Source of the DNA: an uncultured cyanobacterium | GTDB taxonomy: Bacteria; Cyanobacteriota; Cyanobacteriia; Cyanobacteriales; Nostocaceae | NCBI GenBank assembly: GCA_963706595.1 | Contig: OY970166.1 | Span: 4,672,001 to 4,736,000, forward strand | Length of the DNA stretch: 64,000 nucleotides | Direction of reading: 5' to 3' | Position numbers and translations under genes: made by a program | Shown here: positions 16,812 to 48,556 of the stretch, piece by piece | How positions within the stretch are numbered: the first letter of the stretch is position 1 | How the letters are laid out: each line of letters starts with the position of its first letter | Notes under the pieces: generated by a model | The model's database searches: none | What the model was told of the DNA's origin: nothing | What the model saw: only the letters and a program-made list of their open reading frames with translations

Positions 16812-16918
16812 AAATTTCAACTTAATTTATCTCAAATCCGCTCTCTGTCAAGTGGCGGTTACAAAACTCATTCAATTTTGACACTTTCCTGAATAAATTT
16901 ATAAATATAACAAAAAAT

Positions 16919-16946
16919 GTAGGGACAATTCATGAATTATTCCTAC
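16919..16946. repeat. GTAG-type REP-like palindrome
   Basis: GTAGGGACAATTCATGAATTATTCCTAC. Confidence 0.55.
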
Positions 16947-16985
16947 AAATGTTCTGAAAGACGCATATTTAAATTCAGCCGATGT

Positions 16986-17261
16986 CTATTGAGGTCGAAT
17001 CAGGCTAACGCTTTTGGTTGCACTATCCCAGACTATCCAGGCACAAGAATTATCTACATCTTCTGCATGATTGGTAACTTTAAAATACACCTTATCCTGT
17101 CCTTTGGGTTCAACAGCAAAGTCGGCATTTTGGGCATAAACCACTTTAAAACCTTTGTCTCGCAAGCAATACATCGCCCAAGCTTTCAATGATTGCTTGT
17201 ATGGTTCATGGGGAATTGGTGGTTTAGTGATGGTGTCTTCTATGACTTGAAATATTTCCAT
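16986..17261 (-). CDS. Small hypothetical protein
   Basis: 91-aa ATG-started ORF with plausible composition, co-oriented with trpS. Confidence 0.65.
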   Translation of the reverse strand: MEIFQVIEDTITKPPIPHEPYKQSLKAWAMYCLRDKGFKVVYAQNADFAVEPKGQDKVYFKVTNHAEDVDNSCAWIVWDSATKSVSLIRPQ

Positions 17262-17486: not shown

Positions 17487-19406
17487 ATGAACTCTATACA
17501 AAAACCTTGCTTAACTATTCCTGATTTCCTTGAACATTGGCAAAAAACACAACCAGATGCGATCGCAATTATCGCCCCCCAACGTCAACCCCTAACTTAC
17601 CAGCAACTTCACGCCCAAACCCTGATAGTTGCCCAAGCTTTAGCACAACTCAATATTCATCCTAACGAACCGGTAGCCGTTGCCCTTCCCAACAGTCCAG
17701 AAATGGCTGTGATGTTCCTCTCCGTTGCTTCCTATGCCACCTGCGCCCCCCTCAACCCCAACTATCGAGAAACAGAGTATGAATTTTATCTGAGTGACCT
17801 GCAACCAAAAGCGCTGATTATGCAATCTGGGGTAGCTGACGCAGCCCGCAAAGTCGCGGAAATGCAAAAAATACCAATTATTGAGTTATCACCTAATTTA
17901 GAGGCATCAGCAGGTATCTTTTCCCTGAACTTTACCCCTGCATCTACCGCCCAAATTGACCCCGCCACCCCCGATAATATCGCCCTGATTTTGCATACTT
18001 CCGGCACTACCTCCCGCCCAAAAATCGTTCCTCTCAGCCATCACAATCTTTGTACTTCTGCCAGCAACATTAGCCAAACACTACAATTAACAGCCCATGA
18101 CTGCTGTCTCAACGTCATGCCTTTATTTCATATTCATGGGTTGATAGGCTGTTTGCTCTCCACCATCAGCACCGGGGCAAGTATAATTTGTACTCCGGGG
18201 TTTCAATCACCCAACTTTCTCGACTGGTTACAACAACTGCAACCAACTTGGTATTCTGCTGTACCGACAATGCAGCAGCTAATTTTGGAAAGAGCAAAAT
18301 CTACTTCTGACCTCTCCCACAACTTAAGGCTAATTCGTTCCTCCTCCGCTTCCCTTCCCCCACAAGTAATTCAAGAATTGGAAGCCACCTTCAAAGTGCC
18401 TGTGATTGAGGCTTATGGCATGACAGAAGCCTCCCATCAAATGACCAGTAACCCCCTACCGCCTTTAGTGCGTAAACCCGGTTCAGTTGGTTTACCAGCA
18501 GGGCCTGAAGTTGCCATCATGGATGAAGCTGGTAATTTTCTTGCCGTTGGAGAGGTTGGAGAAATAGTCATTCGTGGTGCAAATGTGACACAAGGATATG
18601 GGAATAATCCTGAAGCTAACACCAAAGCATTTACACAGGGGTGGTTTCGCACAGGAGACCAGGGGATGTTTGATGAGGATGGCTATCTGACGATTAAAGG
18701 ACGAATCAAAGAATTAATCAATCGTGGTGGAGAAAAAATAGCCCCTCGTGAAATTGATGAAGTGTTACTGGAACATCCAAACATTGCCCAAGCTGTAGCT
18801 TTTGCTGTTCCTCATTCTCTGTTAGGAGAAGAAGTTGGAGTAGCCGTAGTTCTCAAACAGGGCAAAACTGTTACCGAGGAAGAAGTACAAACATTTATTG
18901 CCAAGTCTCTAGCAGATTTTAAAGTTCCCCGTCGGGTTGTTTTTTTAGATGCAATTCCCAAAGGTGCTACTGGCAAGTTACAACGGATTGGATTAGCTGA
19001 AAAATTAGGGATCACCTTTGCCGAACCAGCAACAGAACTTTTAAGTTTTATCCCTCCTAGAACATCTTTAGAAATAGTCATCGCCAACATTTGGGCAACG
19101 TTTCTCAAACGGGAGAAAATCGGGATAGAAGATAATTTCTATGCCTTGGGAGGACAATCTTTAGAAGCGGTGGAAATTACAGGTGAAATAGAAGAACTTT
19201 TTGCTATTAAACTACCCTTATTAGCAATCTCTAAAGCTCCTACGGTTGCTAAACTGGCAGAATTAATAATACAAAAATCCTCACAGGCAAAACTCCTAGA
19301 AATAATGGCTCAACAAATTCTCGATGTGGCGGATATGCAAGAAGAAGAAATTGAACAAATGTTAGCTGAACACAACGCTTGTGCTGGGGTAGAAGGAGAA
19401 TCATGA
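17487..19406 (+). CDS. NRPS loading protein: oxalate-CoA-ligase-like adenylating enzyme fused to a carrier (PCP/ACP) domain
   Basis: LHTSGTTSRPK, PLFHIHGL, WYSAVPTM, IRSSSASL, EAYGMTEASHQMTSNPLPP and IPKGATGKLQR. C-terminal carrier DNFYALGGQSL and an acidic docking tail. Confidence 0.85.
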   Translation: MNSIQKPCLTIPDFLEHWQKTQPDAIAIIAPQRQPLTYQQLHAQTLIVAQALAQLNIHPNEPVAVALPNSPEMAVMFLSVASYATCAPLNPNYRETEYEFYLSDLQPKALIMQSGVADAARKVAEMQKIPIIELSPNLEASAGIFSLNFTPASTAQIDPATPDNIALILHTSGTTSRPKIVPLSHHNLCTSASNISQTLQLTAHDCCLNVMPLFHIHGLIGCLLSTISTGASIICTPGFQSPNFLDWLQQLQPTWYSAVPTMQQLILERAKSTSDLSHNLRLIRSSSASLPPQVIQELEATFKVPVIEAYGMTEASHQMTSNPLPPLVRKPGSVGLPAGPEVAIMDEAGNFLAVGEVGEIVIRGANVTQGYGNNPEANTKAFTQGWFRTGDQGMFDEDGYLTIKGRIKELINRGGEKIAPREIDEVLLEHPNIAQAVAFAVPHSLLGEEVGVAVVLKQGKTVTEEEVQTFIAKSLADFKVPRRVVFLDAIPKGATGKLQRIGLAEKLGITFAEPATELLSFIPPRTSLEIVIANIWATFLKREKIGIEDNFYALGGQSLEAVEITGEIEELFAIKLPLLAISKAPTVAKLAELIIQKSSQAKLLEIMAQQILDVADMQEEEIEQMLAEHNACAGVEGES

Positions 19407-21808
19407 GTCAATTTGAACAGCAACCATTAAATTTATCAAGTCACAAGCGGGCTTTATTAAAAAAGCTACAACAGCAGCAAGGAATAAAGGGAGTATCAAC
19501 ACAGAAAATTCCCCAAAGGACGACAGAGGGAGAACTTCCACTTTCTTATTCTCAAGAGTGGATGTGGTTACTGGAACAACTGACTCCTACTGTTTACAAC
19601 AATCCCCTGACTCTGAAATTAACTGGTCAACTCAATTACAAAAGCTTAGAAAGAGCCTTGAATGAAATTGTAGTTCGCCATGAAGCGCTGAGAACAAAAT
19701 CTTATTTATCAGCAGGAATAACAAAACAATTTATTGCGCCTCCCTCAGATTATATTCTCTCAATTGTTGATGTATCGTCAGCATCAGAAGCTAGAGAACA
19801 GCTAATAGCAGAAACTAAACGCCCTTTTCAATTGGAAAAAGACTTGCCTTGGCGTGCAGTTTTATTCCGCATCAGCGAAATTGAACATTGGTTTCATCTC
19901 ACCTTACATCACATCGTTGATGACGATCAATCTGATGTACTTTGGGTTAAGGAACTGACTGTTTTATATGAAGCATTTTCAGAAAATCGTCCATCACCTC
20001 TATCTGAATTACCCATTCAATACGCAGATTTTGCGCTTTGGCAGCGAGAGCAATTACAAGGAGAAAATTACCAAAAACTTCTAAATTACTGGCAAAATCA
20101 ACTAGGAGATTTACCCCCTGCTCTCAATTTACCATTTAAGCAACAACCAGACTTAAAAACATTAGCAGGTGATCAAGAACAGATCAGACTTTCCCCAGAA
20201 TTAACCAGTTCCTTAAAATACCTGAGTCAGCAAGCACAGGTGACTTTTTTCACGCTACTTTTGACTACTTTAAAAATCTTGCTTTATCGCTATACAGGGC
20301 AAAGTGATTTAATAGTTGGTACTCCTACTTCTTGGCGACAAAAACCGGAAACTCAGAGTTTAATCGGGGTTTTCATGAATAACTTAGTATTACGCAGTAA
20401 GCTATCAGGAGATATTAGTTTTCTGACATTCTTAAGACAAGTACAAGATACGGTTTTAGAAGCCCAAGAGCATAGTAACTTCCCCTATCTAGAACTGGTT
20501 ACTCAGTTGGAGAATGGTGGCGTTGATAAAGGAAACTCTCTATTTGAGGTAATGCTGGATTTTCAAGGTCAGTCATTACCAGTAAGGGAGGTTTCTGGTT
20601 TAACTTGGGAATCCCTGGAAATTAATCCTAAAACTGCAAAAGTTCCTCTTGCTTTACACCTGGAAGAAGACAATGGAGAATTGAAAGGCTTTTTTGGATA
20701 TAGCACTGGTTTATTTGATTGAGATACTATTATTCGTGCTGTTGGACATTTTGAAACCTTATTAGAAGGGATTGTTGCTAATCCTGATCAACTTATTTCT
20801 AAGTTACCTTTGTTAACAACTTCTGAGCAACAACAAATTTTAGTTGAGTGGAATCAGACTGAGACAGAATACCCACAAGATAAGTGTATTCATCAATTAT
20901 TTGAGGAACAGGTTGAGAAAATGCCAGATGCGATTGCAGTTGTGTTTGAAGATCAACAACTAACTTATCAACAGTTGAATGAAAAAGCTAATCAACTAGC
21001 ACATTACTTACAAGAAATTGGAGTCAAACCAGAGGTTTTAGTAGGGATTTGTATAGAACGTTCTCTGGAGATGATAGTAGGATTATTAGGGATTCTCAAA
21101 GCGGGAGGAGCTTATGTTCCTCTTGATCCTAATTCTCCCCATGAGCGAATGGAGTATCTATTTGCCGATGCTCAATTTAGTTTATTGATCACAAAAAAAA
21201 GAGCATCATTAAATTTCCCAAAATCCTATCCTTTGATAATTGATATAGATGAGTGTTCAGACGTATTACAACATCAGAGTAAATCTAATTGTCAAAGTGG
21301 TGTAACAGCTAGAAATTTAGGATATGTCATTTATACATCTGGTTCAACTGGACAGCCAAAAGGTGTATTAGTTGAACATAGAAGTGTAGCCAACTTTTTG
21401 TATTTTCGTAACAACGAAATTTTTAAACCAGATGAGTTAAAAGCAGGAACAGTCACAGCTTCTATTTACTTTGATGCTAGTGTTGCTCAAATTTTCTCTC
21501 CCCTAATCATAGGTGGTAAAATCGTTATCATTCCCGAAATAGGCCAATTATTTAAATGGATAGAGCAGGAAAGAATTACTTGTTTAACCATAGTCCCTTC
21601 ATTATTAGAGCAATTACTCCAAAGCTCTTCCCTACCTGATTCTATTCAGGTTATTGGATTAGGTGGAGAAGCAGTAACTGAAACTTTGCTAAAAGAATTA
21701 GTCCAGCATCCCAACGTTAAAAAAATTATTAATTTATATGGTCCAACAGAAGCCACAATTGGTAGCTGTAGTAGTATCATATATGAGCAAATAAATCATT
21801 CAGTGTGA
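19403..21808 (+). pseudogene. NRPS condensation domain + N-terminal half of an adenylation domain (A1-A5), with an in-frame TGA at 20720-20722
   Basis: ATG 19403 overlaps the upstream stop (ATGA). C-domain motifs LSYSQE and HHIVDDD. ORFs 19379..20722 and 20810..21808 share one frame across a single TGA. A3 YTSGSTGQPKG and A5 NLYGPTE are present, then a stop. Confidence 0.8.
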
Positions 21809-21817
21809 GACTTATCT

Positions 21818-22678
21818 ATGTATTCAAATAATCAAAACATTACATCTAATAACTTATCTAAAAATCATTGGAAAAAAGCTCCCCAATGGTTTGATTTGCT
21901 TAGTTCACCCTTACGTCCAAGTCCTGAAGATATAGATTTTCTGAAACTACAAGTTTTACCTAAACTACAAATAGACTCTGCTGAAACAAAAAAAGTTGTT
22001 TTATTAGGAGTAACACCAGAAATTGCCACTTTACCTTGGTCTGAAAAGACTGAAATTTTAGCTATTGACAGTTCTGATATGATGATTAATACAGTTTGGC
22101 CTCGAGAACAGGTTTCTAGAGGAAAAGCTATTAATGGAAATTGGCAACAACTGCCTTTAGCAGATAATTCCTGTAACCTGGTTTTAGGAGACGGTTGTTT
22201 TACTTTACTTGATTATCCTCATGGCTATAAAACAGTTTTACAAGAAATTCTCAGAGTCCTTAAAACTAACGGATTATGTGTAATGAGATTTTTCTTGCGC
22301 CCAGAGAAAGCTGAGGATTTGCCAACTATATTTGCACAATTACAGAATAAATCTGTTGGTAATTTTCAGGTTTTTAAGTGGCGTTTAGCAATGGCTTTAC
22401 AAAAAAATATTCAGTCAGGAGTTCCAGTCAGAGAAATTTGGCAGGTATGGAATCAAGAAGTTCCTTTCCCAGAAAAACTTATGCAAGAATTGGCATGGTC
22501 GAGCGAATTGCTAGAAACTATAAATATCTATAAAGATTCACCATCTGTTTACACATTTCCCACATTAGCAGAAGTTAGACAGTTGTGTAATTCTGACTTT
22601 ATCGAAGAGTCCTGTTATTTTCCTAGCTATGAGTTGGGAGAACGTTGTCCCACTTTAGTATTTCGCGCTCTCAAGTAA
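21818..22678 (+). CDS. Class I SAM-dependent methyltransferase (atypical motif I)
   Basis: VVLLGVTPE, ILAIDSSDMM, GNWQQLPLADNSCNLVLGDG and EILRVLKTNG. Confidence 0.75.
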   Translation: MYSNNQNITSNNLSKNHWKKAPQWFDLLSSPLRPSPEDIDFLKLQVLPKLQIDSAETKKVVLLGVTPEIATLPWSEKTEILAIDSSDMMINTVWPREQVSRGKAINGNWQQLPLADNSCNLVLGDGCFTLLDYPHGYKTVLQEILRVLKTNGLCVMRFFLRPEKAEDLPTIFAQLQNKSVGNFQVFKWRLAMALQKNIQSGVPVREIWQVWNQEVPFPEKLMQELAWSSELLETINIYKDSPSVYTFPTLAEVRQLCNSDFIEESCYFPSYELGERCPTLVFRALK

Positions 22679-22736
22679 AATTTTTCTGAACCAATATTGT
22701 ATTAAAACGAAGTCACTTTATAGGAGGATGAATTGA

Positions 22737-24305
22737 ATGTTGGATTGCATCGTTATTGGAGGGGGTCCAGGAGGCTTAGTTACTACTAAAGAGCTACTTG
22801 AACAAGGCATAGATAAAGTAGTTTGCTTGGAAAAAACAGAGGAAATAGGCGGTGTTTACATTAATCATGCTTATGATAATTTAATTTTGACTTCTTCTTG
22901 TACATATAGTATGTTTTCAGATTTCTGGATGGGAGATGGAAAACAGCACGAATTCTGGACTAAAAAAGAAGTTGTTGAATATTGGAAAAATTACGCTAAA
23001 CATTTTGGAGTTATAGATAAAATTCGTTTCAACTCTGAAGTTTTATCAATAACTCCACAAGACACAGGAGGATGGCAAGTTGAACTGAAATCACAAGAAA
23101 TTTTACACTCAAAACGAGTAGCATTAGCAATTGGCAATAATAATATCCCTAGTTATCCAGATTGGAAAGAATCATTAACCCAGGTTGAGTTTTTTCATTC
23201 CCAACAATATCGCAATGCTAACGGATTTGTAGATAAAAATGTATTAGTAGTTGGAGGCGGAGAGTCAGGAGCAGATATAGCACTAGAAACATCTAAAGTC
23301 GCCAAAACTTGCTGGAATAGTCTACGGAATTCCGCCGGATGGATTATTCCCAGAAAAAGAGGTGCTTATGCTGCTGACATTGCTACCCATCGAGGGTTAT
23401 ATGGTTTACCAAGGGAATATGGATATACATTTAGTAATCTTCTTATTCAAAATGAATTGAATTACAATGATCCGGTTCATGACACTGTTGTGAAGCTGAA
23501 TCAGAAAATAAAGTCTAAAAACGGAATTTGGGGAATATATGGAACTAAAAACTTGTCATTACCTCAAGCAATTGTTGATCATGGTTGTCAAGTTGTAGGC
23601 GAAATTTCCCAAGTAGAAGATGGAGGTAAAACTTTAATCACTGCGGATGGTGAAATTCTGGAAAATGTAGATGCAGTGGTATTTTGTACAGGTTACAAAA
23701 ACTCTATTTCCTTTCTACCAGATGAGTTTAAAAAAACCGATCCTCGATATCTGTATAAACATATGTTTCATCCAGAATTGCGGGATAAAATTGTTTGGAT
23801 TGGTTGGGCGCGTCCAGGTTATGGTAGCCAATTTCCGATTATGGAAATGCAAGCTAGGTTGTTTGCGTTAATTTGTGCCGATCAAAAAGAACTACCATCT
23901 TTGGAAACTATGAAAGAGGTTGCATTTGTAGATAGAGAAAATTTTTTAAAGCAGTTTGAACATAATGCTGTTCGCATAAGAAGTTTGGTTGATTACCATA
24001 TCTATATGGATGATCTTGCAGATGTAATTGGATGTAAACCGCCATTATGGAAATACTTCTTTTTGCATCCTCGTCTATGGCTACGGATAGTATATGGAGC
24101 AACTCAAGCTACTCAATTTCGTCTCCAAGGACCTGGACAGAAGGAAACTTTAGCTCAAGAGTTTATTAGGAAATTACCTGTAAGTCCCTTCAATCATGTG
24201 GTCAAAGCTGGTTTAATAGGTCGTTTAATTTATGCTTTGAACGCTATAGTTAAACCTATTTCATCTTTACGCTTACGGAAGCTAAAACATAAAACTTTAT
24301 CTTGA
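22737..24305 (+). CDS. Flavin-containing monooxygenase (class B, FMO-like)
   Basis: FAD motif GGGPGG, FMO motif FHSQQYR, NADPH motif GGGESG and FCTGY. RBS AGGAGG upstream. Confidence 0.88.
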   Translation: MLDCIVIGGGPGGLVTTKELLEQGIDKVVCLEKTEEIGGVYINHAYDNLILTSSCTYSMFSDFWMGDGKQHEFWTKKEVVEYWKNYAKHFGVIDKIRFNSEVLSITPQDTGGWQVELKSQEILHSKRVALAIGNNNIPSYPDWKESLTQVEFFHSQQYRNANGFVDKNVLVVGGGESGADIALETSKVAKTCWNSLRNSAGWIIPRKRGAYAADIATHRGLYGLPREYGYTFSNLLIQNELNYNDPVHDTVVKLNQKIKSKNGIWGIYGTKNLSLPQAIVDHGCQVVGEISQVEDGGKTLITADGEILENVDAVVFCTGYKNSISFLPDEFKKTDPRYLYKHMFHPELRDKIVWIGWARPGYGSQFPIMEMQARLFALICADQKELPSLETMKEVAFVDRENFLKQFEHNAVRIRSLVDYHIYMDDLADVIGCKPPLWKYFFLHPRLWLRIVYGATQATQFRLQGPGQKETLAQEFIRKLPVSPFNHVVKAGLIGRLIYALNAIVKPISSLRLRKLKHKTLS

Positions 24306-24346
24306 TAATCAAAGTACATAATCAAAGTACGAGTCTTACAAAAACA

Positions 24347-25189
24347 ATGGGAATATCTATTGGTAAACCGATCTTTAATACACAAGTCTATATTCTTGAT
24401 CAAAACTTAAATCTTCTTCCTGTAGGTATTCCCGGAGAGTTACACATCGGAGGAATTGGTCTATCTAGAGGCTATTTGAGGCGCGATGAACTAAGTGAAA
24501 ATAAGTTTATCCCCAATCCTTTTGGTGAGGGAAAGCTATATAAAACTGGAGATTTAGCTCGTTATCTTCTTAACGGAGAAATTGAATTTCTCGGTCGTCT
24601 AGATGATCAAGTCAAAATACGGGGTTTCCGTATTGAATTAGGAGAAATTAAAAATTCTTTATCTCAGCATGATCAAATCCGAGAAACCTTAGTTATTGCC
24701 TACGAAGATTTAGTTGAAAAGCGATTAGTTGCTTATTTTGTTAGCCGTGCTGATGACGCTATTTCTAATCAAGACTTACGAGAGTTTCTAGGGCAAAAAT
24801 TACCCTCTTACATGATTCCGTCTGCTTTTCTACAAATAGAGAAGTTTCCCTTAACTACCAGTGGCAAAATCGACCGTCGCGCTTTACCAAAACCGAGTTT
24901 TGAGCAGATTAATACAGAGTTTGTTCCCCCTCGCACTGAGATAGAAGTCAAAATTGCCGAGATTTGGTCACAAGTTTTGGGGATAGATACTATCGGCGTT
25001 GATGATAATTTTTTTGCCGTAGGAGGACATTCACTTTTAGCAACTCAGGTAATTTCCCGCCTGTTCCAAGTGTTTGGTGTCAAACTTTCTTTTATCAGTT
25101 TTTTCTCTACACCTACTATAGCGGGATTAAGTCAGGAAATAGAGAAGTTGCGCGGGGTTAGTGATGATTATGAAGAGGGAGAAATCTGA
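24347..25189 (+). CDS. C-terminal half of the adenylation domain (A6-A10) + PCP + SLiM docking tail
   Basis: SIGKPIFNT, GELHIGG..LSRGY, LYKTGDL, GRLDDQVKIRGFRIELGEI, SGKIDR, GGHSLLA and terminal DDYEEGEI. First ATG is at 24347. Confidence 0.8.
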   Translation: MGISIGKPIFNTQVYILDQNLNLLPVGIPGELHIGGIGLSRGYLRRDELSENKFIPNPFGEGKLYKTGDLARYLLNGEIEFLGRLDDQVKIRGFRIELGEIKNSLSQHDQIRETLVIAYEDLVEKRLVAYFVSRADDAISNQDLREFLGQKLPSYMIPSAFLQIEKFPLTTSGKIDRRALPKPSFEQINTEFVPPRTEIEVKIAEIWSQVLGIDTIGVDDNFFAVGGHSLLATQVISRLFQVFGVKLSFISFFSTPTIAGLSQEIEKLRGVSDDYEEGEI

Positions 25190-25569
25190 ATTATATTCAA
25201 ATTTTACACAAAAACCTCACTATAAGTATCGCTGATTTCCTTGGGCATTGGCAAAAAACACAACCAGATGCGATCGCAATTATAATTCATCGAGAAGAAT
25301 TTGTTGCCCCTACTCATACAACAGAAATTAAATTAGCTCAAATTTGGGAAGAAATATTGAAAATAAAGAACATAGGAATTGATGATAATTTTTTGGACTT
25401 AGGAGGAAATTCTTTACTGGCAACACAAATTATCTTTCGTCTCCGCCCAACCTTTTAGGTAGAAATTTCTCTAAAGAGTTTTTTCAAAACACCTAATATA
25501 GCGGGATTAAGCCAGGAAATAGACAATTTACGCGAGTTTAGTGATAATTATGAGGAGGGGGAAATATGA
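25186..25569 (+). pseudogene. Decayed stand-alone carrier-protein gene (chimera of the loading-gene N-terminus and a PCP with SLiM tail)
   Basis: One frame: (L)NYIQILHKNLTISIADFLGHWQKTQPDAIAII...IDDNFLDLGGNSLLATQ...F*VEI...SDNYEEGEI*. CTG replaces the start and there is a TAG at 25456-25458. Confidence 0.75.
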
Positions 25570-28500
25570 ATTCTATTCAAGTATTATTGGAAGAATTGCA
25601 AGCTGAAAATATTCAGTTGTGGGTTGAGGAAGATCGTCTGCGCTATCGTTGTCCAAATAATGCCCTCACCCCAGAGTTAAGAGAACAGTTATCTGCTCAT
25701 AAATCGGAAATAATTGCTTTTTTGCGACAACAGGAACGAGTGGAAACTATCCCCATTGCTGAGGATGATTTTCTCCCTTTATCCTTCGCCCAGCAACGTT
25801 TGTGGTTTCTCGATCAACTTGAACCAAATCTTGCGGTTTATAATACCCCTCTAGCTTTACGTTTGCAGGGGAATCTTGATATTTCTGCTTTAGAAAAAAG
25901 CCTGGAAAAGATTGTTGAGCGTCATAGTGTTTTGCGTACTAATTTTCCCACGATAGACGGAAAACCTTATCAAAATATAGTATCGGAATTAAGGCTATCC
26001 GTTCCTGTGGTTGATATGCAACATCTTGATTCTGCTACAGCAGAGGCGGAACTTCAAGATATTCTTGTTCAATTCATCAACGAACCTTTTGATTTAGCAG
26101 AAGGAAAGGTAATCAGAAGTCAGATATTTCATATCTCTGCTTCAGAATATATTTTAGTCACTGTTGTACATCATATCGCTTTTGATGCTTGGTCATCAAG
26201 GATTTGGTGGCAGGAGTTAATGAATTTTTATCAGGCTTTTGCTTTCAATGAACCGATATCTTTACCAGAGTTATCGATTCAATATAAAGATTTTGCGGTG
26301 TGGCAAAAATCACGTTTGCAAGGAGATTTTTTAGACCAGGAAGTTAATTACTGGCGAGAAAAACTAGCGGATGCGCCTCAAAATTTGGATCTGCTTACTG
26401 ACAACCCCCGCCCACCTGTACAGACTCACACAGGCGATCGCCAACATTTTCACCTTTCTAGTTCTCAAGTGGTAGCACTCAAACAATTAGGACTGGGTAA
26501 GGGGGCGACTTTGTATATGACTTTACTAACGGCTTTTGCCATCCTGCTGCATCGCTATAGTGGCCAAGAAGATTTTCTGATTGGTTCACCCATTGCTAAC
26601 CGCAACTATACAGAAATTGAAAACTTGATTGGCTTTTTTGTCAATACCCTGGCTTTGCGGATTAATTTAGCTAAAGACATTACTTTCCTGGAACTGCTGC
26701 AACAAGTTCGAGATACTACCCTAGAAGCTTATAGCCATCAAGATATTCCCTTTGAAAAGCTGGTTGAGGAATTGCAACCACAGCGCGATCGCTCCCGTCA
26801 TCCGCTATTTCAAGTCATGTTTGCCCTGCAAAATGTGCAAAGAGCAACCGTGAATTTACCTGACATTAATGTTAGTTCTTTCCCAGTTAGTACCAATACG
26901 AGTAAGTTTGATATCACTGTCATTCTGGAAGAAACCAAGGAAGGATTAAAAGGCTTTTTTGAGTATAGCAATGATTTATTTAATCGAGATACTATTATTC
27001 GTGCTGTTGAACATTTCCAAACATTACTAGAAGGGATTGTTGCTCATCCCGATCAACTTATTTCCCAGTTACCGCTATTCACAAATTCTGAGCAAAAACA
27101 AATTTTAGTTGAGTGGAATCAGACTAAGACAGAATACCCACAGGATAAGTGTATTCATCAATTATTTGAGGAACAGGTCGAGAAAACGCCAGATGCGATC
27201 GCAGTGGTGTTTGAAGATGAACAACTAACTTATCAACAGTTGAATGAAAAAGCTAATCAACTTGCTCATTACCTAAAAGGTTTAGGGGTTGGTACTGATG
27301 TTTTAGTAGGGTTATATGTAGAAAGGTCTGTTGATATTATGGTTGGTATATTAGGCATTCTCAAAGCTGGTGGTGCTTATGTCCCCCTTGACCCCAAATA
27401 TCCATCGGAACGTTTGGCATTAATGATACAGGAGGCTCAAGTTGAGGTTATATTAACACAACAACACCTAATAAATTCACTGCTAAAAACAGAGGCAAAA
27501 ATCATCTGTTTAGATACAGATTGGCAAGTAATATCATCTTCCCATTCTCCTCAATCTTCCCCCAGTCCTCAATCCCCTAATGATCTAGCTTACGTAATTT
27601 ATACATCTGGTTCAACTGGTAAACCCAAAGGCGTTGCTATGCCGCATCGTCCTTTGGTGAACTTAATTACTTGGCAATTACAAACATCCACCATTGAACC
27701 CCAAAGCAGAACACTGCAATACACACCCATTAGTTTTGATGTCTCCTTTCAAGAAATCTTTTCCACCCTGACCACAGGTGGCACATTGGTCTTAATCACC
27801 GATGAGACACGACGCAATCCCAGCAGTTTATTGCAACTTCTTCAGCAACAGCACATCAATCGTTTATTCTTACCCTTTGTTGCCCTACAACAATTAGCTG
27901 AGGTGGTACAGCTAGAAGGTATACTCCTCAGTAGTTTGCAGGAAGTGATTACTGCCGGCGAACAGTTACGGATTACGGAGGCAATCGCACATCTGTTCAC
28001 CCATTTACCCCACTGCACACTACACAACCATTATGGGCCGTCAGAAACTCATGTTGTAACTGCCTATACCTTGACAGGTTCAGCCCAAGATTGGGCGATG
28101 TTACCACCGATTGGTCATCCCATAGCCAATACTCAAATTTATCTCTTAGATGCTTACGGACAACCAGTACCAATTGGGGTAGCAGGGGAATTATATATTG
28201 GGGGTGCTGGTATGGCTAGAGGTTATCTCCATCGTCCTGAACTAACTGCTAAGAAATTTGTTTCCCATCCCTTGAGCCATGAATCAACCGCAAAACTCTA
28301 TCGCACTGGTGATTTAGCACGTTATCTTCCTGATGGAAATGTAGAATTTCTCGGTCGTCTAGATGATCAAGTCAAAATACGGGGTTTCCGTATTGAACTT
28401 GGAGAAGTGGAAGCTGTTCTCAATCAACATCCTCATGTCTTCAATACAGTGGCGATCGCCCGTGAAGACATTCCCGGAGATAAACGCCTCATAGCTTATA

Positions 28501-29822
28501 TTATCCTTGAACCCCAAGCAACACCCTCTCAGAGCGAATTGCGGGAATTTCTGAGACAGAAGCTACCAGATTACATGATTCCCTCTGTTTTCGTATTTTT
28601 AGACAAGTTTCCCCTGACTCCCAATGGTAAAATCAACCGTCGCGCTCTGCCCAAGCCTGAATTAACTCTGCAAGAACGAGAGGAAACTTTTATCGCGCCA
28701 CGTAATGAATTAGAAGAGAAACTGGCAGTAATTTGGCAAGAAATTTTAAAGATTGAGCCAATTGGTATTCACGATAACTTCTTTGAACTAGGAGGTCATT
28801 CCCTACTCACAGTCAGTCTGGTAACTAAAATCGAGACGACGCTGGGGAAAAAACTGCCAATTACAGCTCTATTTGAGTTAACAACCATTGCTCAGTTAGC
28901 CAATTATCTTAAAAATGAAGATATTTTAGACAACCCTCCCGCTCATCCCACTATTTACGATTACCAACTTTCTGGAGAGCAAGAAAAACAGCTTTTAGCC
29001 ATTATCGTTGGTCGTCAAGGTGAACGACCTCACCCGCACTCATTCATGGTGAAAATCCACTCAAAAGGTGATCAGGAAAAACCGTTTTTTTACTGCGCTA
29101 ATAGTTATAAAGAAGCTCTACCTTTAGCCAATTGTTTAGAATATTCTTTTTATTTACTCGAATCAGGTTATACTGTCTTTGGTAGTGATTATGCTTACGG
29201 CATTAAGGCTTTAGCGGCGCGCCATGTGGAAGATATTTTAAGAGTCCAGCCTCACGGATTTTATTCCATTGGTGGTTATTCTTATGGAACACTGGTAGCT
29301 TACGAAATTAGTCAGCAACTGCAAGCACGAGGAAAAACCGTAGATTTATTAGTGATTTTTGATCGTCCAGGTACTCATTTTCTTTACGTACTTTATCAAT
29401 ACTTCTACAAGCTACCGTCTCATATTAGTTGGATTTTGTCTACTCTCCAGCAGTCTCACCCCAGAAAACGTTTGCAAGATTTGCAACAAAAAGGATTAAG
29501 GATTTTGCGGAGGTTGGGATTAAATCAGATACCACAGCAAGCAACAACAGAAATACAACTATCAGAACAGAGCCTATCTTCCCCAATGCTGAACACATCT
29601 CCTTATCAATTTGCGCCCTATGAAGGTCGTGTAGTCTTGTTGTGTGCAGAGGAAAGAAAAACGCCACTGTGGTTATTTCCCCACAATGGGTGGAGTCAGA
29701 AAATCCTACCCAATTTGGAGGTATACAAAGTACCTGGGACGCACCACAACATGATTAAATCTCCCCATGTCGAAGTTTTGGCAAAACAACTGAAAACGTG
29801 TTTACAACGCATCGCATTTTAG
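25566..29822 (+). CDS. Terminal NRPS: TubC-N-type docking domain-C-A(Pro)-PCP-TE
   Basis: N-terminal IQLWVEEDRLRYRCP, HHIAFDAWS, complete A1-A10 with by-eye specificity code DVQFIAHVVK (proline), GGHSLL, TE GYSYG and a C-terminal His motif PGTHHNM. Confidence 0.92.
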   Translation: MNSIQVLLEELQAENIQLWVEEDRLRYRCPNNALTPELREQLSAHKSEIIAFLRQQERVETIPIAEDDFLPLSFAQQRLWFLDQLEPNLAVYNTPLALRLQGNLDISALEKSLEKIVERHSVLRTNFPTIDGKPYQNIVSELRLSVPVVDMQHLDSATAEAELQDILVQFINEPFDLAEGKVIRSQIFHISASEYILVTVVHHIAFDAWSSRIWWQELMNFYQAFAFNEPISLPELSIQYKDFAVWQKSRLQGDFLDQEVNYWREKLADAPQNLDLLTDNPRPPVQTHTGDRQHFHLSSSQVVALKQLGLGKGATLYMTLLTAFAILLHRYSGQEDFLIGSPIANRNYTEIENLIGFFVNTLALRINLAKDITFLELLQQVRDTTLEAYSHQDIPFEKLVEELQPQRDRSRHPLFQVMFALQNVQRATVNLPDINVSSFPVSTNTSKFDITVILEETKEGLKGFFEYSNDLFNRDTIIRAVEHFQTLLEGIVAHPDQLISQLPLFTNSEQKQILVEWNQTKTEYPQDKCIHQLFEEQVEKTPDAIAVVFEDEQLTYQQLNEKANQLAHYLKGLGVGTDVLVGLYVERSVDIMVGILGILKAGGAYVPLDPKYPSERLALMIQEAQVEVILTQQHLINSLLKTEAKIICLDTDWQVISSSHSPQSSPSPQSPNDLAYVIYTSGSTGKPKGVAMPHRPLVNLITWQLQTSTIEPQSRTLQYTPISFDVSFQEIFSTLTTGGTLVLITDETRRNPSSLLQLLQQQHINRLFLPFVALQQLAEVVQLEGILLSSLQEVITAGEQLRITEAIAHLFTHLPHCTLHNHYGPSETHVVTAYTLTGSAQDWAMLPPIGHPIANTQIYLLDAYGQPVPIGVAGELYIGGAGMARGYLHRPELTAKKFVSHPLSHESTAKLYRTGDLARYLPDGNVEFLGRLDDQVKIRGFRIELGEVEAVLNQHPHVFNTVAIAREDIPGDKRLIAYIILEPQATPSQSELREFLRQKLPDYMIPSVFVFLDKFPLTPNGKINRRALPKPELTLQEREETFIAPRNELEEKLAVIWQEILKIEPIGIHDNFFELGGHSLLTVSLVTKIETTLGKKLPITALFELTTIAQLANYLKNEDILDNPPAHPTIYDYQLSGEQEKQLLAIIVGRQGERPHPHSFMVKIHSKGDQEKPFFYCANSYKEALPLANCLEYSFYLLESGYTVFGSDYAYGIKALAARHVEDILRVQPHGFYSIGGYSYGTLVAYEISQQLQARGKTVDLLVIFDRPGTHFLYVLYQYFYKLPSHISWILSTLQQSHPRKRLQDLQQKGLRILRRLGLNQIPQQATTEIQLSEQSLSSPMLNTSPYQFAPYEGRVVLLCAEERKTPLWLFPHNGWSQKILPNLEVYKVPGTHHNMIKSPHVEVLAKQLKTCLQRIAF

Positions 29823-35413: not shown

Positions 35414-36517
35414 TCATAAATAGCTTGATAAAACTTCGACAGTAGCAAGTCCTGTTTTTTCCCAACTGAATTGATTTGCTCTATTTATACCTTGGCTGGA
35501 AAGGTGCGATCGCACTTGCAGATCCTCCGCTATAATTTGCATAGCCTCAGTAATTTCTCCGATGTTGTAGGGATTGATTAAAATCGCTGCTTCTCCAGCC
35601 ACTTCCGGGAGAGACGAAAGGTTAGAGGTAATTACTGGAGTCCCGCAAGCCATTGCTTCGAGAACGGGAAACCCGAAGCCTTCCCACAGACTCGGAAAAA
35701 CCAGTGCGATCGCACCATTAATAATCTTTGGTAATTCGTTATAAGATACATAATTGAGAAACTTTACTTGCTCAGTGATTCCCAGTTCTGCAACCTGCGT
35801 TTCTAAACCTGGAGTGTAACGCGCATCAATGGGACCTGCTAACCACAGTTCATATTCACCCTTATTTGGTAGCGCCGCAAAAGCCGCTATGAGTCGGTGT
35901 AAATTCTTATAAGGATCTTGTCGTCCCAGGTAAAGAAAATAACGCTGACTTCCTCCCCATTTTGCTTTCATCGGGCGAAAATGTTCGCCATCATAAGCCA
36001 GAGGAATGGGCGTAATTTTGCTGGCGGGAATTTGGTAAAAATCGATCATATCCTGCGCTGTGGCTTGGGAATTGCAGATTATGTGTTGCGCTTGTTTGAG
36101 GACTTGGGGAATGTAGTAACGATGGTAAGGTGTTAACGGCGAGAAGCGTTTGGGAAAGCGCAACGGTATTAAGTCATGAGACATGACCACAAAACGACAG
36201 TTACTATTAAGGGGTGCTTCCGGTAACGGCGAAAATAACAACCTAGATTTTAGGTTTTTATAGATTTGTGGTAATTGGAACTGTGTCCACAATAAGCGGC
36301 GCAAATGCCCTTTTGTACCTTGAGCCGGAGTCAGATTATTGGGGACTGGATAGCAGTGGAATTTTGAACATTTCTGTGCTGTTAATAAAGTCGGCTCAAG
36401 AGATTTTAAATAAGGAGCAATATTTTTAGCATAGTTAGTTATACCTGTTGCTTGAGGTAATAGAATGGATAAGTTGATAATTAATTGATTAGCGCCAGAA
36501 TGATCAGATAATTTCAT
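35414..36517 (-). CDS. GT4 glycosyltransferase (WbpY/mannosyl- or rhamnosyltransferase-like)
   Basis: [17 protein letters not shown] and [23 protein letters not shown]. Confidence 0.88.
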
Positions 36518-36776
36518 TAAATAATAGTTTGATCAGCCTTGAATTTTTCTATTACCGTTCTTTATTATGAAAATAATTTTACTCTTTCTCTACCTTTGTT
36601 GATGAAAATTATCAATATATAGCCGTAGTCATATCGGTTAGAAGAATTCTCATAGCTCAAAGCCTGGCAAAGACTGGGTTTATACTCAGCAGTTTGTGAT
36701 TCAACTACAAAAACTACCCGATTTGCTTTTGATTTTATGAAGGTGGAATCAACTCCAAACTTTAATATTCAAATCT

Positions 36777-37748
36777 TTAACCTACGCCATCCCTCAATTT
36801 TTTGAGGTCATAATCCACCATTAATTCGACCATTTGCTCAAAAGTATGTTGAGGTTGCCAACCTAACTCAGTTTTAATTTTATCAATGGAACCAACTAAC
36901 TGCACTGGTTCATCAGGACGGTAAAATGCGGGGTCAACTGCCACATAATCTTGCCAATTTAGACCAACATAATTGAAAGCACACTCAACGAGTTCTTTGA
37001 CTGAATGAGTTTCACCACTGGCAATAATATAATCTTCGGGTTGCTCTTGTTGTAACATCAGCCACATAGCATAAACAGCATCTTTGGCATAGCACCAATC
37101 ACGACGAGCATCTAAATTACCTAATTTTAATTCATTTGCCAAACCGAGTTTAATTTCGGCTGCGGCGTGGGTGATTTTACGAAATACAAATTCCGTCCCA
37201 CGTCGGGGCGATTCATGAGTGTAAGTAATACCACAGCAGCAGTAGAGGTCATATTTTTGTCGGTAGTTAACAGTCATCCAATGGGCGTAAGCTTTAGCAA
37301 CACCGTAGGGGTTACGGGGACGAAAAGCGGTGCGTTCGGTTTGGGGCGATTCGTCTGGTTGACCAAAAACTTCACTACTGGAAGCTTGATAGAATCTTGC
37401 ATCGGATTTGCAGCGACGGATTGATTCTAAGAGACGGGAAACACCCAGGGCTGTGTATTCTGCGGTGAGAGAGGGTTGAGTCCAAGAGAGGGGGACGTAG
37501 CTTTGAGAGGCGAGGTTATAGATTTCATCCGGTTGTGAGTCTGTAATTACGTCCATTAAGGAACATTGATCGAGGAGATCACCGGATAGGATTTTCACAT
37601 CGCCGGAGAGGTGGCTAATACGTTCTAAGTTGCTGGTGCTGGAACGGCGGACTAGTCCGAATACTTCGTATCCTTTGTTAAGGAGGATTTCGGCGAGATA
37701 GGAACCGTCTTGTCCGGTTAGTCCAGTAATGAGGGCTTTTTTAGTCAC
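36777..37748 (-). CDS. gmd: GDP-mannose 4,6-dehydratase
   Basis: ALITGLTGQDGSYLAE, YQASSSE, PYGVAK and HESPRRG. GTG start at 37748. Confidence 0.93.
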   Translation of the reverse strand: MTKKALITGLTGQDGSYLAEILLNKGYEVFGLVRRSSTSNLERISHLSGDVKILSGDLLDQCSLMDVITDSQPDEIYNLASQSYVPLSWTQPSLTAEYTALGVSRLLESIRRCKSDARFYQASSSEVFGQPDESPQTERTAFRPRNPYGVAKAYAHWMTVNYRQKYDLYCCCGITYTHESPRRGTEFVFRKITHAAAEIKLGLANELKLGNLDARRDWCYAKDAVYAMWLMLQQEQPEDYIIASGETHSVKELVECAFNYVGLNWQDYVAVDPAFYRPDEPVQLVGSIDKIKTELGWQPQHTFEQMVELMVDYDLKKLRDGVG

Positions 37749-37877
37749 AGTGATAATTGTGCTGTTAAACAACTAAATTTAAACGAATTGTAGATGCGAT
37801 CGCCTGCTAACCGCCAATATAAAATCAGACAAAGGCGAGTTTGTAGTTATTGGACTTTTGACGAACGCGTAGCGCTG

Positions 37878-38732
37878 CTAGTTTCTCTGATTTAGACATC
37901 GCCTCAAATACATTAACACCCCCTGCATTTTTCCTAGTGATACTTGCGGTTTGATGACGATTAAAACAAGAGCGTACAGAATTAGTCTAGTTAATCTGAT
38001 TATTTGTATAGACAGATTTGTATATTTTTCTAATGTGATTAAATAGCTGTATGTACTATATTTAATTTTGAGAAAAATATTTCTATTCGTAATTGACGAT
38101 GGTTGATGAATTACACTAAAATTATTGGTTACAGCAATTAAATTTCCTTGATTCGCATAGCGTTGACAAAAATCAAAATCTTCATAATAGAGAAAGTAAA
38201 CCGGGTCAAACAAAGGAGGTTCCGAAAAATTTCGTAAATTAATCATTAAACTACAACCAGAAACCCAGTCACAAATCACATAGGGTTGATCTGTGTCTGT
38301 TAACAAGTTTTCATCAATAATTGCACCCATGCTAGGAAGAAAGCGACCACCTGCAAACCAAACTTCACCTTGAGGTGTATAAATAATAGTACCAAGAATT
38401 GATAACTCTGAATAAGAATCAAAAAAAGTATTAACTTCTGCTAAACAATTTTTTGACAAATAAGCATCAGGATTAATTATCCAAATAATTGCTTGCTGAT
38501 CTTCATTGAAAATATATTCAATCCCTAAGTTGCAAGCATTACCAAAGCCTATATTCCCTTCAGCATGAATAATCTGCACAGATTGACCTTGAATTTGATT
38601 AATATCAGAATCTTCAGGAGAATTATTGATGATTAAGACATTGTAAGCAATATTTTGGTCTGTTGGAAATGAATTGATTAATTTAGTTAACAGATTCGTA
38701 GAATAATAGTTAACTGTTAAAAAGTAAATCAT
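37878..38732 (-). CDS. GT2 glycosyltransferase (rhamnosyltransferase-like)
   Basis: NIGFGNACNLG, INPDA, WVSGCSL and FLYYEDFDFC. Confidence 0.85.
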   Translation of the reverse strand: MIYFLTVNYYSTNLLTKLINSFPTDQNIAYNVLIINNSPEDSDINQIQGQSVQIIHAEGNIGFGNACNLGIEYIFNEDQQAIIWIINPDAYLSKNCLAEVNTFFDSYSELSILGTIIYTPQGEVWFAGGRFLPSMGAIIDENLLTDTDQPYVICDWVSGCSLMINLRNFSEPPLFDPVYFLYYEDFDFCQRYANQGNLIAVTNNFSVIHQPSSITNRNIFLKIKYSTYSYLITLEKYTNLSIQIIRLTRLILYALVLIVIKPQVSLGKMQGVLMYLRRCLNQRN

Positions 38733-39805
38733 GTCAGTTCAATTTGACAATCATCACCTATCAAAAAACGTAAAGCTTTAGGAAGACGAGGAGCAACAGT
38801 CAATTGTGCGCGTTGTCCAATCACACTATCAATAATACGCTGATTAATTCCCACAATTTTTGCACCTTCTAAAACTACGCTGTGTTCTAAATCGGTATCA
38901 ATGAGCTTTGTATGATTCGCAATGCTAGTGTAAGGACCAATGAAGCAGTTTTCTAAATAACAATCATTGCCAATCACAACTGGACCGCGAATTGTACAAT
39001 TAATAATTTGGGAATTAGTACCAATTTCCACTCGCCCAATAATCTGACTATTACTATCAACTTCGCCTAAATTTGACGTTTTCAAACAAGTATCAAGAAT
39101 CAACCGATTAGCTTCTAGTAAATCATCTTTTTTACCAGTGTCTAGCCACCAACCATCAAGTTTACAAGCTACAACTTGTTTTTGCTGGTTGATTAAACAT
39201 TGAATAGCATCGGTAATTTCTAACTCCCCTCTTTTTGAAGGTTGGATACAAGAAATGGCATCATGAATAATCGGGGAAAAGAAATAAACCCCTACTAATG
39301 CTAAATTTGATGGGGGAACTTTGGGTTTTTCAATTAATTCTAATACTCGCCCTGTTTCGTCTACCTTAGCAACACCAAAAGCGCTAGGATTCACAACTTC
39401 ACGTAGTAGAATTAAGGCATCTGGTTGTTGTTCAGTAAATTCTTGGAGAAAATAACTTAAGTCACCTTGTTGAATTAGATTATCACCCAAGTACATAACA
39501 AAGGGCGAATCTGCTAAAAAGGAACGGGCGACTGTCACCGCATGAGCTAATCCGGCTGGCTCGTCTTGTGTAATATAGGTGATGTTAGCGCCAAAAACTT
39601 TGCCATCTCCGGTTTTACTTTGGACTTCTGCTCCGGTTTCGGGGCTAATAATAATCCCAATATCGGTAATTCCAGCCGCAACCATCTCTTCAATTCCATA
39701 CCACAAAATTGGTTTATTGGCAACGGGGACGAGTTGTTTTGCGCCTGTATAAGTGAGTGGGCGTAGACGTGTACCTTTACCGCCGGATAGAATCAGTGCT
39801 TTCAT
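38729..39805 (-). CDS. rfbA: Glucose-1-phosphate thymidylyltransferase (long form)
   Basis: MKALILSGGKGTRLRPLT...KQLVPVANKP; start set to ATG 39805. Confidence 0.93.
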   Translation of the reverse strand: MKALILSGGKGTRLRPLTYTGAKQLVPVANKPILWYGIEEMVAAGITDIGIIISPETGAEVQSKTGDGKVFGANITYITQDEPAGLAHAVTVARSFLADSPFVMYLGDNLIQQGDLSYFLQEFTEQQPDALILLREVVNPSAFGVAKVDETGRVLELIEKPKVPPSNLALVGVYFFSPIIHDAISCIQPSKRGELEITDAIQCLINQQKQVVACKLDGWWLDTGKKDDLLEANRLILDTCLKTSNLGEVDSNSQIIGRVEIGTNSQIINCTIRGPVVIGNDCYLENCFIGPYTSIANHTKLIDTDLEHSVVLEGAKIVGINQRIIDSVIGQRAQLTVAPRLPKALRFLIGDDCQIELT

Positions 39806-39807
39806 AA

Positions 39808-40692
39808 TTATGATTTGGAGAGCCAGTTTTTGAGCATTAGCCTCAGTCTTTGTCGCCAATGGGGGGGGTAAGTTCCTAGAACTTTTGATATTTTCCCACA
39901 AGCTAGGACAGGATAAGCAGGGCGACGGGCTAAGGTGGGATATTCGGCGGTGGTGATGGGGATAACTTTGGGTGGTGTGAGGGGAAAACCAAGTTGTTGG
40001 GCTTCTTCAAAAATCGCCACTGCAAAGTCGTACCAGCTAATCACGCCACTATTGGTATAGTGGTAAATGCCAGCTATTTCTGGTGTTAACTGGGGTATAA
40101 TGTGGGCGATCGCATCAGCAATATCTTGCGCCCAAGTGGGACTACCAATTTGATCTGTAACTACACCAATTTCTGAGCGTTCTTTACCTAGTCGCAGCAT
40201 GGTTTTGACAAAGTTACCTTTTCCATAGGTTCCGTAAACCCAAGCTGTGCGAAGAATAATATGATGGGAATGAGTTTGCTCAATTGCTATTTCTCCGGCT
40301 CGTTTGGTTTTACCGTAAATACCTAACGGGTTAGTTGCATCAGTTTCTTGGTATGGGTGGGTTTGCTGTCCATCAAATACGTAATCTGTGGAAAAGTGAA
40401 TGAGGAAACAGCCGAGTTTTTGGCTTTCTTCAGCGATAATTTGCGGGGCTGTAGTATTAATGGCGGTAGCTAGTTCGGGTTCGGTTTCGGCTTTGTCTAC
40501 AGCAGTATAAGCAGCAGCATTAATGATTATTTGTGGTTGGATGTCTCTGATGATTTGACGCAGGTTATGGGGTTGAGTCAGGTCAATTTTAGGGCGCGCC
40601 AGTGGGATAATTTTATGTTTGGGCGAAAGGATTTTTTCGAGTTCTTGTCCTACTTGACCGTTACTACCCAGTAGTAAGATTGATTCATTCAT
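39808..40692 (-). CDS. rfbD: dTDP-4-dehydrorhamnose reductase
   Basis: GSNGQVG, AAYTAVDKAE, STDYVFDG and YGKTK. Confidence 0.95.
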   Translation of the reverse strand: MNESILLLGSNGQVGQELEKILSPKHKIIPLARPKIDLTQPHNLRQIIRDIQPQIIINAAAYTAVDKAETEPELATAINTTAPQIIAEESQKLGCFLIHFSTDYVFDGQQTHPYQETDATNPLGIYGKTKRAGEIAIEQTHSHHIILRTAWVYGTYGKGNFVKTMLRLGKERSEIGVVTDQIGSPTWAQDIADAIAHIIPQLTPEIAGIYHYTNSGVISWYDFAVAIFEEAQQLGFPLTPPKVIPITTAEYPTLARRPAYPVLACGKISKVLGTYPPHWRQRLRLMLKNWLSKS

Positions 40693-41230
40693 ATACTTCT
40701 GCGGTTCTAAATGCTTGACCGTTGTTATCTTTATCTGATAAGATTGGCGGTTGTTTGATAGGCCAATTTATCGCTAAATCTGGATCATTCCAGAGAATGG
40801 TGCGATCGCCTTGAGGAGCATAATAATCTGTCGTTTTGTAAATAACTTCGGCTACTTCTGACAGCACGAGAAAACCGTGAGCAAAGCCTGGTGGTATCCA
40901 TAATTGGCGTTTATTTTCGGCGCTGAGTTCATAACCTACCCATTGTCCAAAGGTGGGCGAACTTTTTCTAATATCTACGGCTACGTCAAAGATTGTACCA
41001 ACAACAGCACGAACGAGTTTACCTTGGGGTTGGATAATTTGGTAGTGTAGTCCGCGTAAAACGTTTTGCTGAGAAGCCGAGTGGTTATCTTGAACGAAGT
41101 TGACGGTGATACCCAGTTTGTCTGTGAATTTTTGCTGGTTGTAAGATTCCAAGAAAAAACCGCGCTCATCTTGAAAAACTTGAGGATAAATGATTGATAT
41201 AGCGGGTATTTTTGTTGATATAATTTCCAT
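40685..41230 (-). CDS. rfbC: dTDP-4-dehydrorhamnose 3,5-epimerase
   Basis: DERGFFLE, QDNHS, LRGLHYQ and PPGFAHGF. Confidence 0.95.
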   Translation of the reverse strand: MEIISTKIPAISIIYPQVFQDERGFFLESYNQQKFTDKLGITVNFVQDNHSASQQNVLRGLHYQIIQPQGKLVRAVVGTIFDVAVDIRKSSPTFGQWVGYELSAENKRQLWIPPGFAHGFLVLSEVAEVIYKTTDYYAPQGDRTILWNDPDLAINWPIKQPPILSDKDNNGQAFRTAEVYE

Positions 41231-41268
41231 TGTTTCTTTTTAGTCAAAATATTTTTTATTGTTTTTTC

Positions 41269-42364: not shown

Positions 42365-42513
42365 AACAACTCCTAATATATTAAAGATTTATGTAACAAA
42401 TGAAAAAACCCAATTTAAACGAAAATCTATGTGATTTCTTAACCAGTTTAGATTCAAATAACGAGACTATTGTTGTGAATAAGAGATTTATTCTTGATAA
42501 CTACTAAAATAAT

Positions 42514-47103: not shown

Positions 47104-47137
47104 ATTTATATATAGTTATAGAACTTTAATAAAGAAA

Positions 47138-48490: not shown

Positions 48491-48556
48491 ATTTTCAATC
48501 TCACTCCTCTAAACTCACACACAATTAGCAAAGTTAATATTTTATAGTATAGTCAT

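Follow-up and report, generated by a model that had tools for sequence, protein, structure and literature searches.

The closest described counterpart of the system treated here is corallorazine Crz1/Crz2, in which one adenylation (A) domain of a nonribosomal peptide synthetase (NRPS) lies on two genes and a methyltransferase (MT) is associated with it. In the accessible part of PMC11342130, its authors present it as the first case of a functional A domain divided between two genes and report activity only on mixing both proteins. There the break follows core motif a8, the MT is fused to the first part, and only a9-a10 are encoded on the adjacent gene. Interrupted A domains, families 1-7 (Lundy), also carry tailoring functions within the coding span of an A domain; as excerpted, PMC8341866 describes them as single polypeptides interrupted at a2-a3, a6-a7 or a8-a9. 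The supplements of both papers may list further split sites. Herein, we describe an NRPS cluster from an uncultured cyanobacterium (Nostocaceae; GCA_963706595.1, contig OY970166.1, positions 4,672,001-4,736,000 of the forward strand). These 64,000 nt, analyzed as a whole, are referred to as the window, and the genome carrying it as G000. The first A domain of the cluster (A1) is broken between a5 and a6, inside the core. Its MT is encoded separately and belongs to another family, and at related loci one to three genes lie between the halves. Relative to the interrupted A domains, the inserts are free-standing genes at a5/a6, a region that the portion of PMC9205934 at hand describes as a natural recombination boundary of the specificity subdomain. 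The cluster works like the corallorazine split module, yet it is a member of neither that type nor the interrupted families. On sequence evidence, we consider it reasonably probable that this is a patchily distributed NRPS island whose A1 is made as two proteins reassembling at a5/a6, that an intact cluster would yield oxalyl-X-Pro, with X probably a brominated, methylated aromatic residue, and that the G000 copy is inactive.

The cluster is a plus-strand run at window 17487-29822, with the trpS region on one side and a convergent resistance-nodulation-division (RND) gene on the other. Its parts are as follows.

17487..19406, plus strand: loading module, an oxalate-CoA-ligase-like enzyme fused to a peptidyl carrier protein (PCP) domain (Pfam AMP-binding, AMP-binding_C and PP-binding; PCP serine in LGGQSL).
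19403..20722, plus strand: first condensation (C) domain, C1, with the variant motif HHIVDDD, cut by an in-frame TGA at 20720-20722.
20723..21808, plus strand: end of C1 and N-terminal half (N-half) of A1 through a5; the A N-half proper is 20810-21808, with a stop soon after YGPTE.
21818..22678, plus strand: stand-alone protein of class I S-adenosylmethionine-dependent MT fold (weak Pfam Methyltransf_11 match; motif I reads LLGVTPE).
22737..24305, plus strand: flavoprotein of flavin-containing monooxygenase (FMO) fold, by homology a Bmp5-type single-component flavin-dependent halogenase, with Lys271 conserved.
24347..25189, plus strand: C-terminal half (C-half) of A1 (a6-a10 and catalytic Lys) followed by a PCP (VGGHSL), with its own ATG start.
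About 25190..25569, plus strand: dead PCP relic with no ATG and an internal stop.
25566..29822, plus strand: termination module with a TubC_N docking domain, C, A (Pro), PCP and thioesterase (TE) (Pfam domains; motifs HHIAFDA, LGGHSL and GYSYG).

This setting between the trpS region and the RND gene had been described in an earlier sequence-only reading of the window, together with ATGA overlaps at 19403-19406 and 25566-25569. Open reading frames and Pfam confirmed both, the second overlap coinciding with the stop of the relic frame. The gene order proposed there also stood for the ligase-PCP, the MT, the A(C-half)-PCP, the dead PCP and the C-A-PCP-TE module; it failed for the C-A(N-half) unit, which is split here by the in-frame TGA. 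The possibility raised in that reading that these genes never co-occur elsewhere did not hold, as the architecture recurs in other genera. In the literature searched, we found no A domain split at a5/a6, no Bmp5 in an NRPS, no oxalyl-loading NRPS and, among described cyanobacterial NRPS families (aeruginosin/spumigin, anabaenopeptin, microginin and others), no cluster of matching architecture; most subscription journals, supplements and MIBiG were outside the scope of this search, which is no proof that these are unpublished. The proportion of G and C at third codon positions was 0.24-0.29 in the central cluster genes vs 0.34-0.43 in the flanking genes, making the central genes AT-rich. Promoter and terminator scans of the window stayed at chance level (26 vs 33.2 expected and 13 vs 10.5, respectively).

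The a5/a6 split is natural and conserved. Motifs a3-a5 lie on the 20723-21808 frame and a6-a10 on 24347-25189. The N-half holds nine of the ten pocket-code positions, and the C-half supplies the lysine. The N-half stops 16-27 residues past the start of YGPTE (a5), and the C-half methionine stands 4-5 residues before IG(K/R)PI. Whole A domains space the two motifs by 25-29 residues. Little or nothing is therefore lost at the split. The same short tail follows a5 in L006, L088, L094, L099, L141 and L147/L154. Alignment placed the C-half methionine just before IGKPI in the window, L006, L072, L088, L094 and L099, and also in L147. At the DNA level, the split was found in five other genomes or contigs (twice in G582), with a true stop and a Met-started C-half in L006, L088 (genome G042), L094, G484 (L099) and contig C4 of G582.

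The genes between the halves vary. The window and L006 (Crocosphaera) have the MT and then the halogenase; the L072 contig carries the MT tail, the halogenase and the C-half but does not extend to the N-half. G484 has the halogenase and then the MT, and L094 has a frameshifted halogenase, a chorismate lyase and the MT. G042 contains a zinc dehydrogenase and the MT. In G582, contig C4 has an unrelated MT-like gene on the opposite strand, while contig C25 has C-A(N) and MT with no C-half adjoining. Because the intervening genes differ among loci, the split is neither a one-time event nor an artifact of assembly. Its conservation elsewhere likewise led us to reject assembly error and recent decay as its origin.

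Protein searches and phylogeny gave a consistent pattern. The top 7 of 36 N-half matches are C-A(N)-only proteins of 775-811 aa, one from Planktothricoides; their ends were confirmed in DNA only where they are identical to named loci. In a FastTree phylogeny of a3-a5, each of the 12 rows in the window's clade terminates after a5 (support 88; three row pairs are the same or nearly the same sequence). Rows labelled as split outside this clade appear to be truncated records, mostly partial or at a contig edge, and were left uncounted. The wider A clade (support 95) includes whole-domain relatives, namely L075 from Cyanobium, P0294 and the P0300 group.

Both halves retain their core motifs and show signs of purifying selection. 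Every aligned copy has the a3 P-loop and a5 in the N-half and a6-a10, including the catalytic Lys, in the C-half, and a conserved Arg stands just after a3 throughout the split clade. Crude Nei-Gojobori (NG86) ratios of nonsynonymous to synonymous substitution (dN/dS) were 0.11-0.29 for the N-half in all 10 pairs and 0.09-0.25 for the C-half in 8 of 10 pairs, the other two being saturated. Between L094 and G484, synonymous divergence (dS) was 1.57 for the C-half and 0.20 for the N-half, and the C-half was therefore probably replaced by recombination with its own start retained. Such independent exchange would also suit an arrangement in which the halves form no single enzyme, the N-half being retained as a scaffold, whether for substrate binding or for docking with C1 and the tailoring enzymes, while the C-half PCP is loaded in trans by another A domain or skipped. 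The cutting of a core domain in two and the intact C-A(N) and MT on contig C25 without a neighboring C-half fit this arrangement as well. Yet a scaffold does not account for catalytic motifs kept on both sides, nor for halves that are complementary with a few loop residues missing at most, and the window cluster has no spare stand-alone A gene. We regard the scaffold as unlikely; judging from the sequences, the two proteins likely come together as a single active enzyme. Predicted complexes of the MT with the A halves scored 0.00 in both runs, which is no evidence either way, and a single-sequence fold of the intact relative in L075 (pLDDT 33) was unusable.

Two of these genomes deserve separate mention. 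G582 (99% complete, 330 contigs) has two unlinked A(N) halves (contig C4, L154:11090-13938; contig C25, L141:6248-9456), and one orphan A(C)-PCP-TE was found; the two A(N) halves may share this single C-half. In G042 (contig C138, L088:11173-20000), another cluster is built on the same split module, in the order PTPS/QueD-like gene, A-PCP-deaminase-methyltransferase starter, C-A(N), zinc dehydrogenase, MT and A(C), after which the contig ends.

The flavoprotein resembles Bmp5 and hs_Bmp5 (PMC6520454 and PMC10306068, each as far as its accessible text goes) in full-length identity (66%), FMO fold and a lysine (Lys271) conserved across the family. It matches P0173, annotated as "flavin-dependent halogenase" of Hormoscilla spongeliae SP4, at 345 of 522 residues. 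It differs from these enzymes in lying within an NRPS cluster, in having no adjoining P450 or chorismate lyase in this genome and in belonging to a sister subclade; its predicted substrate is a phenol. Of 91 homologues, 99% carry Lys271, hs_Bmp5 among them, and ancestral animal FMOs have V or L at this position. The available portion of PMC10306068 reports a lysine common to AetF (K258, essential for catalysis) and Bmp5 (K277) that ancestral animal FMOs lack. AetF was absent among the PDB sequence matches of the flavoprotein.

Homologues often lie beside P450 or chorismate lyase genes. The Hormoscilla locus L018 contains the homologue, a second copy and two P450s, which matches the arrangement described for the hs_bmp polybrominated diphenyl ether (PBDE) cluster in the part of PMC6520454 available. 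By homology, the flavoprotein belongs to the Bmp5-type halogenase group, and bromination is likelier than N- or S-oxygenation. The sequence-only reading had favored the latter, a view that this grouping with phenol brominases does not support. An ordinary class B monooxygenase oxygenating N or S of X, to give for example an S-methyl-cysteine sulfoxide or an N-methoxy group, would agree with the FMO-like Pfam match and with ancestral animal FMOs as the best solved relatives, and the Ala-type sister clade of A1 would fit a small or β-substituted alanine. We consider it very unlikely against the 66% full-length identity to a PBDE-cluster halogenase, the family Lys271 that ancestral FMOs lack, and relatives that adjoin P450, chorismate lyase and other phenol-tailoring genes.

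The halogenase tree shows three groups: the enzymes of the window and Crocosphaera (98), those of L094 together with named Moorena proteins on the hs_Bmp5 side, and the L075/L036 pair. Since halogenases of split-A loci fall in separate subclades, recruitment to the split module probably occurred more than once. The halogenase and MT could instead be a bromophenol/bromoanisole cassette (bmp5-bmp6-like plus methylation) that was inserted at a5/a6 and acts on free 4-hydroxybenzoate, leaving the peptide unhalogenated. The chorismate lyase inside the split in L094 and its apparent relic in G484, the halogenase-MT pair without NRPS in the fetched locus L036, the chorismate lyase elsewhere in G000 and the two split-A genomes without halogenase all favor such a cassette. 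We rate it rather unlikely. The same gap recruited halogenases of two subclades, with a third lineage beside the intact relative in L075; chorismate lyase was lost while the halogenase was retained, and in 7 of 8 split loci a member of this MT family comes after the N-half. In a PBDE (bmp) cluster, bmp5 is grouped with a bmp6 chorismate lyase and a bmp7 P450; the window cluster contains neither of these two, and the chorismate lyase of the genome is unlinked.

Bmp5-type halogenases with the conserved lysine also occur in many marine Flavobacteriaceae (Bacteroidota loci L027-L070) and in cyanobacteria, usually annotated merely as monooxygenases, and the cyanobacterial ones often adjoin P450, chorismate lyase or O-methyltransferase genes. 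The congener G003 has a bmp-like locus (L080:14283-19506), a halogenase followed by P450-like genes, with no NRPS within the fetched stretch.

The AlphaFold2 model of the MT (pLDDT 89) had class I methyltransferases as its best folds (Z 19.1, root-mean-square deviation 3.0, 181 aligned), none of them a clear favorite. Neither fold nor atlas searches pointed to a specific function, and motif I (LLGVTPE) is non-canonical. From this model, the MT is assigned a class I methyltransferase fold of an uncharacterized family. Its dN/dS was 0.35-0.51 by the same crude method. The family also occurs in contexts other than directly after the N-half. None of 11 longer MT-family proteins scanned places the MT inside an A domain. 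A fused A-MT-A ancestor was sought and was not among the best 150 MT matches, which does not exclude one. Fusions join the family to a Mur-ligase-type protein in P0323, to a Gfo/Idh/MocA oxidoreductase in P0351 and to an NRPS N-terminus in P0462.

The loading ligase has oxalyl-CoA synthetases as its best PDB matches (E 4e-130 to 4e-122), compared with 5e-66 for malonyl-CoA synthetase. A gene of the isocitrate lyase/phosphoenolpyruvate mutase (ICL/PEP-mutase) family adjoins and follows the ligase in the homologous clusters of G484 and L075. That family includes oxaloacetate acetylhydrolase, which releases oxalate. AtAAE3 and LsOCS are the best structural relatives, and the accessible text of PMC8905533 names Ser289, His319 and Lys500 of AAE3 as oxalate contacts. 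All three are kept in the ligase when aligned to 5ie0. It differs from these free CoA ligases in being a PCP-fused NRPS loading module and in carrying Ile for Val215, Ser for Cys288 and Gly for Ala313. These data suggest that the starter is probably oxalyl, in support of the oxalyl starter that the sequence-only reading had proposed with a question mark. G000 has a second, free ligase of 50% identity. In G484 (L099:3590-10915), a formyltransferase domain lies between C and A in the module preceding the split A, and what seems to be the remnant of a chorismate lyase gene separates halogenase and MT. The A code of this formyltransferase module is close to what we take to be the Lys code.

For the amino acid residues, the pocket positions of the A domains were taken by GrsA numbering. 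The last A domain aligned to the code DVQFIAHVVK. This matches DVQFIAHVXK, given for Pro in a table of PMC2866473, and bears out the earlier assignment of proline. Another Pro-like A domain, with neighboring adenylating genes, occurs in G000 at C1 ~5270700-5275900. A1 carries DAATGGLIGK in the window and four relatives, with the variants DAPTGGLIGK, DAATGGFIGK, DAATGGLICK and DAPSAGMICK, and the window code had no match in the literature searched. Small residues line the walls of the pocket, which suggests that the side chain of X is bulky. Together with the phenol halogenase, the Gly/Ala-rich pocket points to a tyrosine-like residue, at somewhat less than even odds.

A route can be proposed from these parts. 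The ligase, whose oxalate pocket residues are present, would adenylate oxalate and load its own PCP. The C-A(N) and A(C)-PCP proteins, with their complementary coverage, kept motifs and purifying selection, would associate in trans. The Bmp5-type enzyme would brominate a phenol ring and the MT would methylate, before or on the assembly line; family membership is observed for both, and their substrates and timing are projected from it. By standard NRPS logic, C1 would link oxalyl to X, C2 would add Pro, and the TE would release the product. The analysis supports the small starter-X-Pro metabolite suggested before.

In G000 this route is probably closed. The TGA at 20720-20722 in C1 stands where P0283, an 88% identical, uninterrupted C-A(N) protein of 801 aa, has Arg. 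The length of 801 aa is shared by 4 of 6 members of its protein cluster, one member being named from Aphanizomenon. Downstream of the TGA, the end of C1 is lost, and the A1 N-half is left with a TTG start only and no obvious ribosome-binding site. None of 24 congener genes tested against G000 was broken, so the assembly does not look error-prone and sequencing error is not the first guess. Given a stop codon where the 88% identical relative reads Arg, the G000 copy probably carries a private stop and is likely inactive. An intact homologue is therefore the proper starting point for further work. The relic at 25190-25569 combines 79 nt copied from the ligase 5' end (89% identical) with a copy of PCP1 (71%), and a contig of an approximately 91% identical relative jumps from 25122 to 25508, without the relic. 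A search of sequencing runs gave seven matches, all at small shares, and no RNA run was among those listed.

Several observations weigh against the overall reading. A cut at a5/a6 goes through the large core domain, a harder reassembly than that of the hinge-region split in corallorazine, and contig C25 of G582 carries its C-A(N) and MT without an adjoining C-half. The sister of the A clade consists of Ala-code domains (DLFNNALTYK) and not aromatic-code ones, which weakens the tyrosine guess and calls for caution with it. Lys271 would correspond to Bmp5 Lys277 and AetF Lys258 by position only, and the window halogenase falls outside the hs_Bmp5 subclade. No halogenase was found in G042 or G582, both of which have split A genes, and bromination is thus not a defining feature of the split module. 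G000 has no homologue of the ICL/PEP-mutase gene. An oxalate ligase (E<=1e-100) was not found in any of five other genomes (G431, G441, G042, G582 and G442), four of them with split-A genes, and the oxalyl starter therefore belongs to one branch, the split module being reused in different lines. The TGA is read from the assembly. Additionally, C1 has the variant motif HHIVDDD.

A broader interpretation, which we put forward as doubtful, is a two-subunit adenylation class. A selecting half (a1-a5) and a generic catalytic half (a6-a10-PCP) would assemble in trans, the halves being swappable or shared, and the present branch would make oxalyl-bromoaryl-Pro peptides. If true, the retention of a core split in several cyanobacterial families would demonstrate that the specificity and catalytic halves can be separate subunits. 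This would bear on specificity swapping; NRPS engineering would gain a natural place to cut, and brominated peptides could be reached by a new route. In the cluster, NRPS chemistry is linked with a PBDE-type brominase and an oxalate-loading module, a combination not found in the literature searched. It points to a metabolite, probably halogenated, of cyanobacteria from marine, brackish and freshwater habitats.

The cluster is an island, patchily distributed among cyanobacteria. In all three congener regions (G002, G003 and G006), a 91-aa gene and the RND gene are immediate neighbors and the cluster is missing, and the two flanks are also joined on one metagenome contig. The RND pump was rejected as a dedicated exporter and is not part of the cluster, since all three congener regions have it next to the empty site. 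Searches for the MT family were negative in all 388 further genomes from the same taxonomic family and positive in 4 of 400 others from the order. Plasmid matches for the MT or halogenase were not found. A metagenome scan with the MT sequence alone gave no match, and a scan with the MT alignment gave 4 loci.

Two further features of the window were recorded. An ~80-nt dispersed repeat lies at 16907-16994, with 5-22 matches per genome in 11 of 11 genus genomes searched (flanking-gene matches included). Window 35414-49414 is a polysaccharide locus with low-GC patches, containing glycosyltransferases, nucleotide-sugar enzymes and a Wzm/Wzt-type ABC transporter. This locus also encodes a methyltransferase-glycosyltransferase fusion of 1529 aa.

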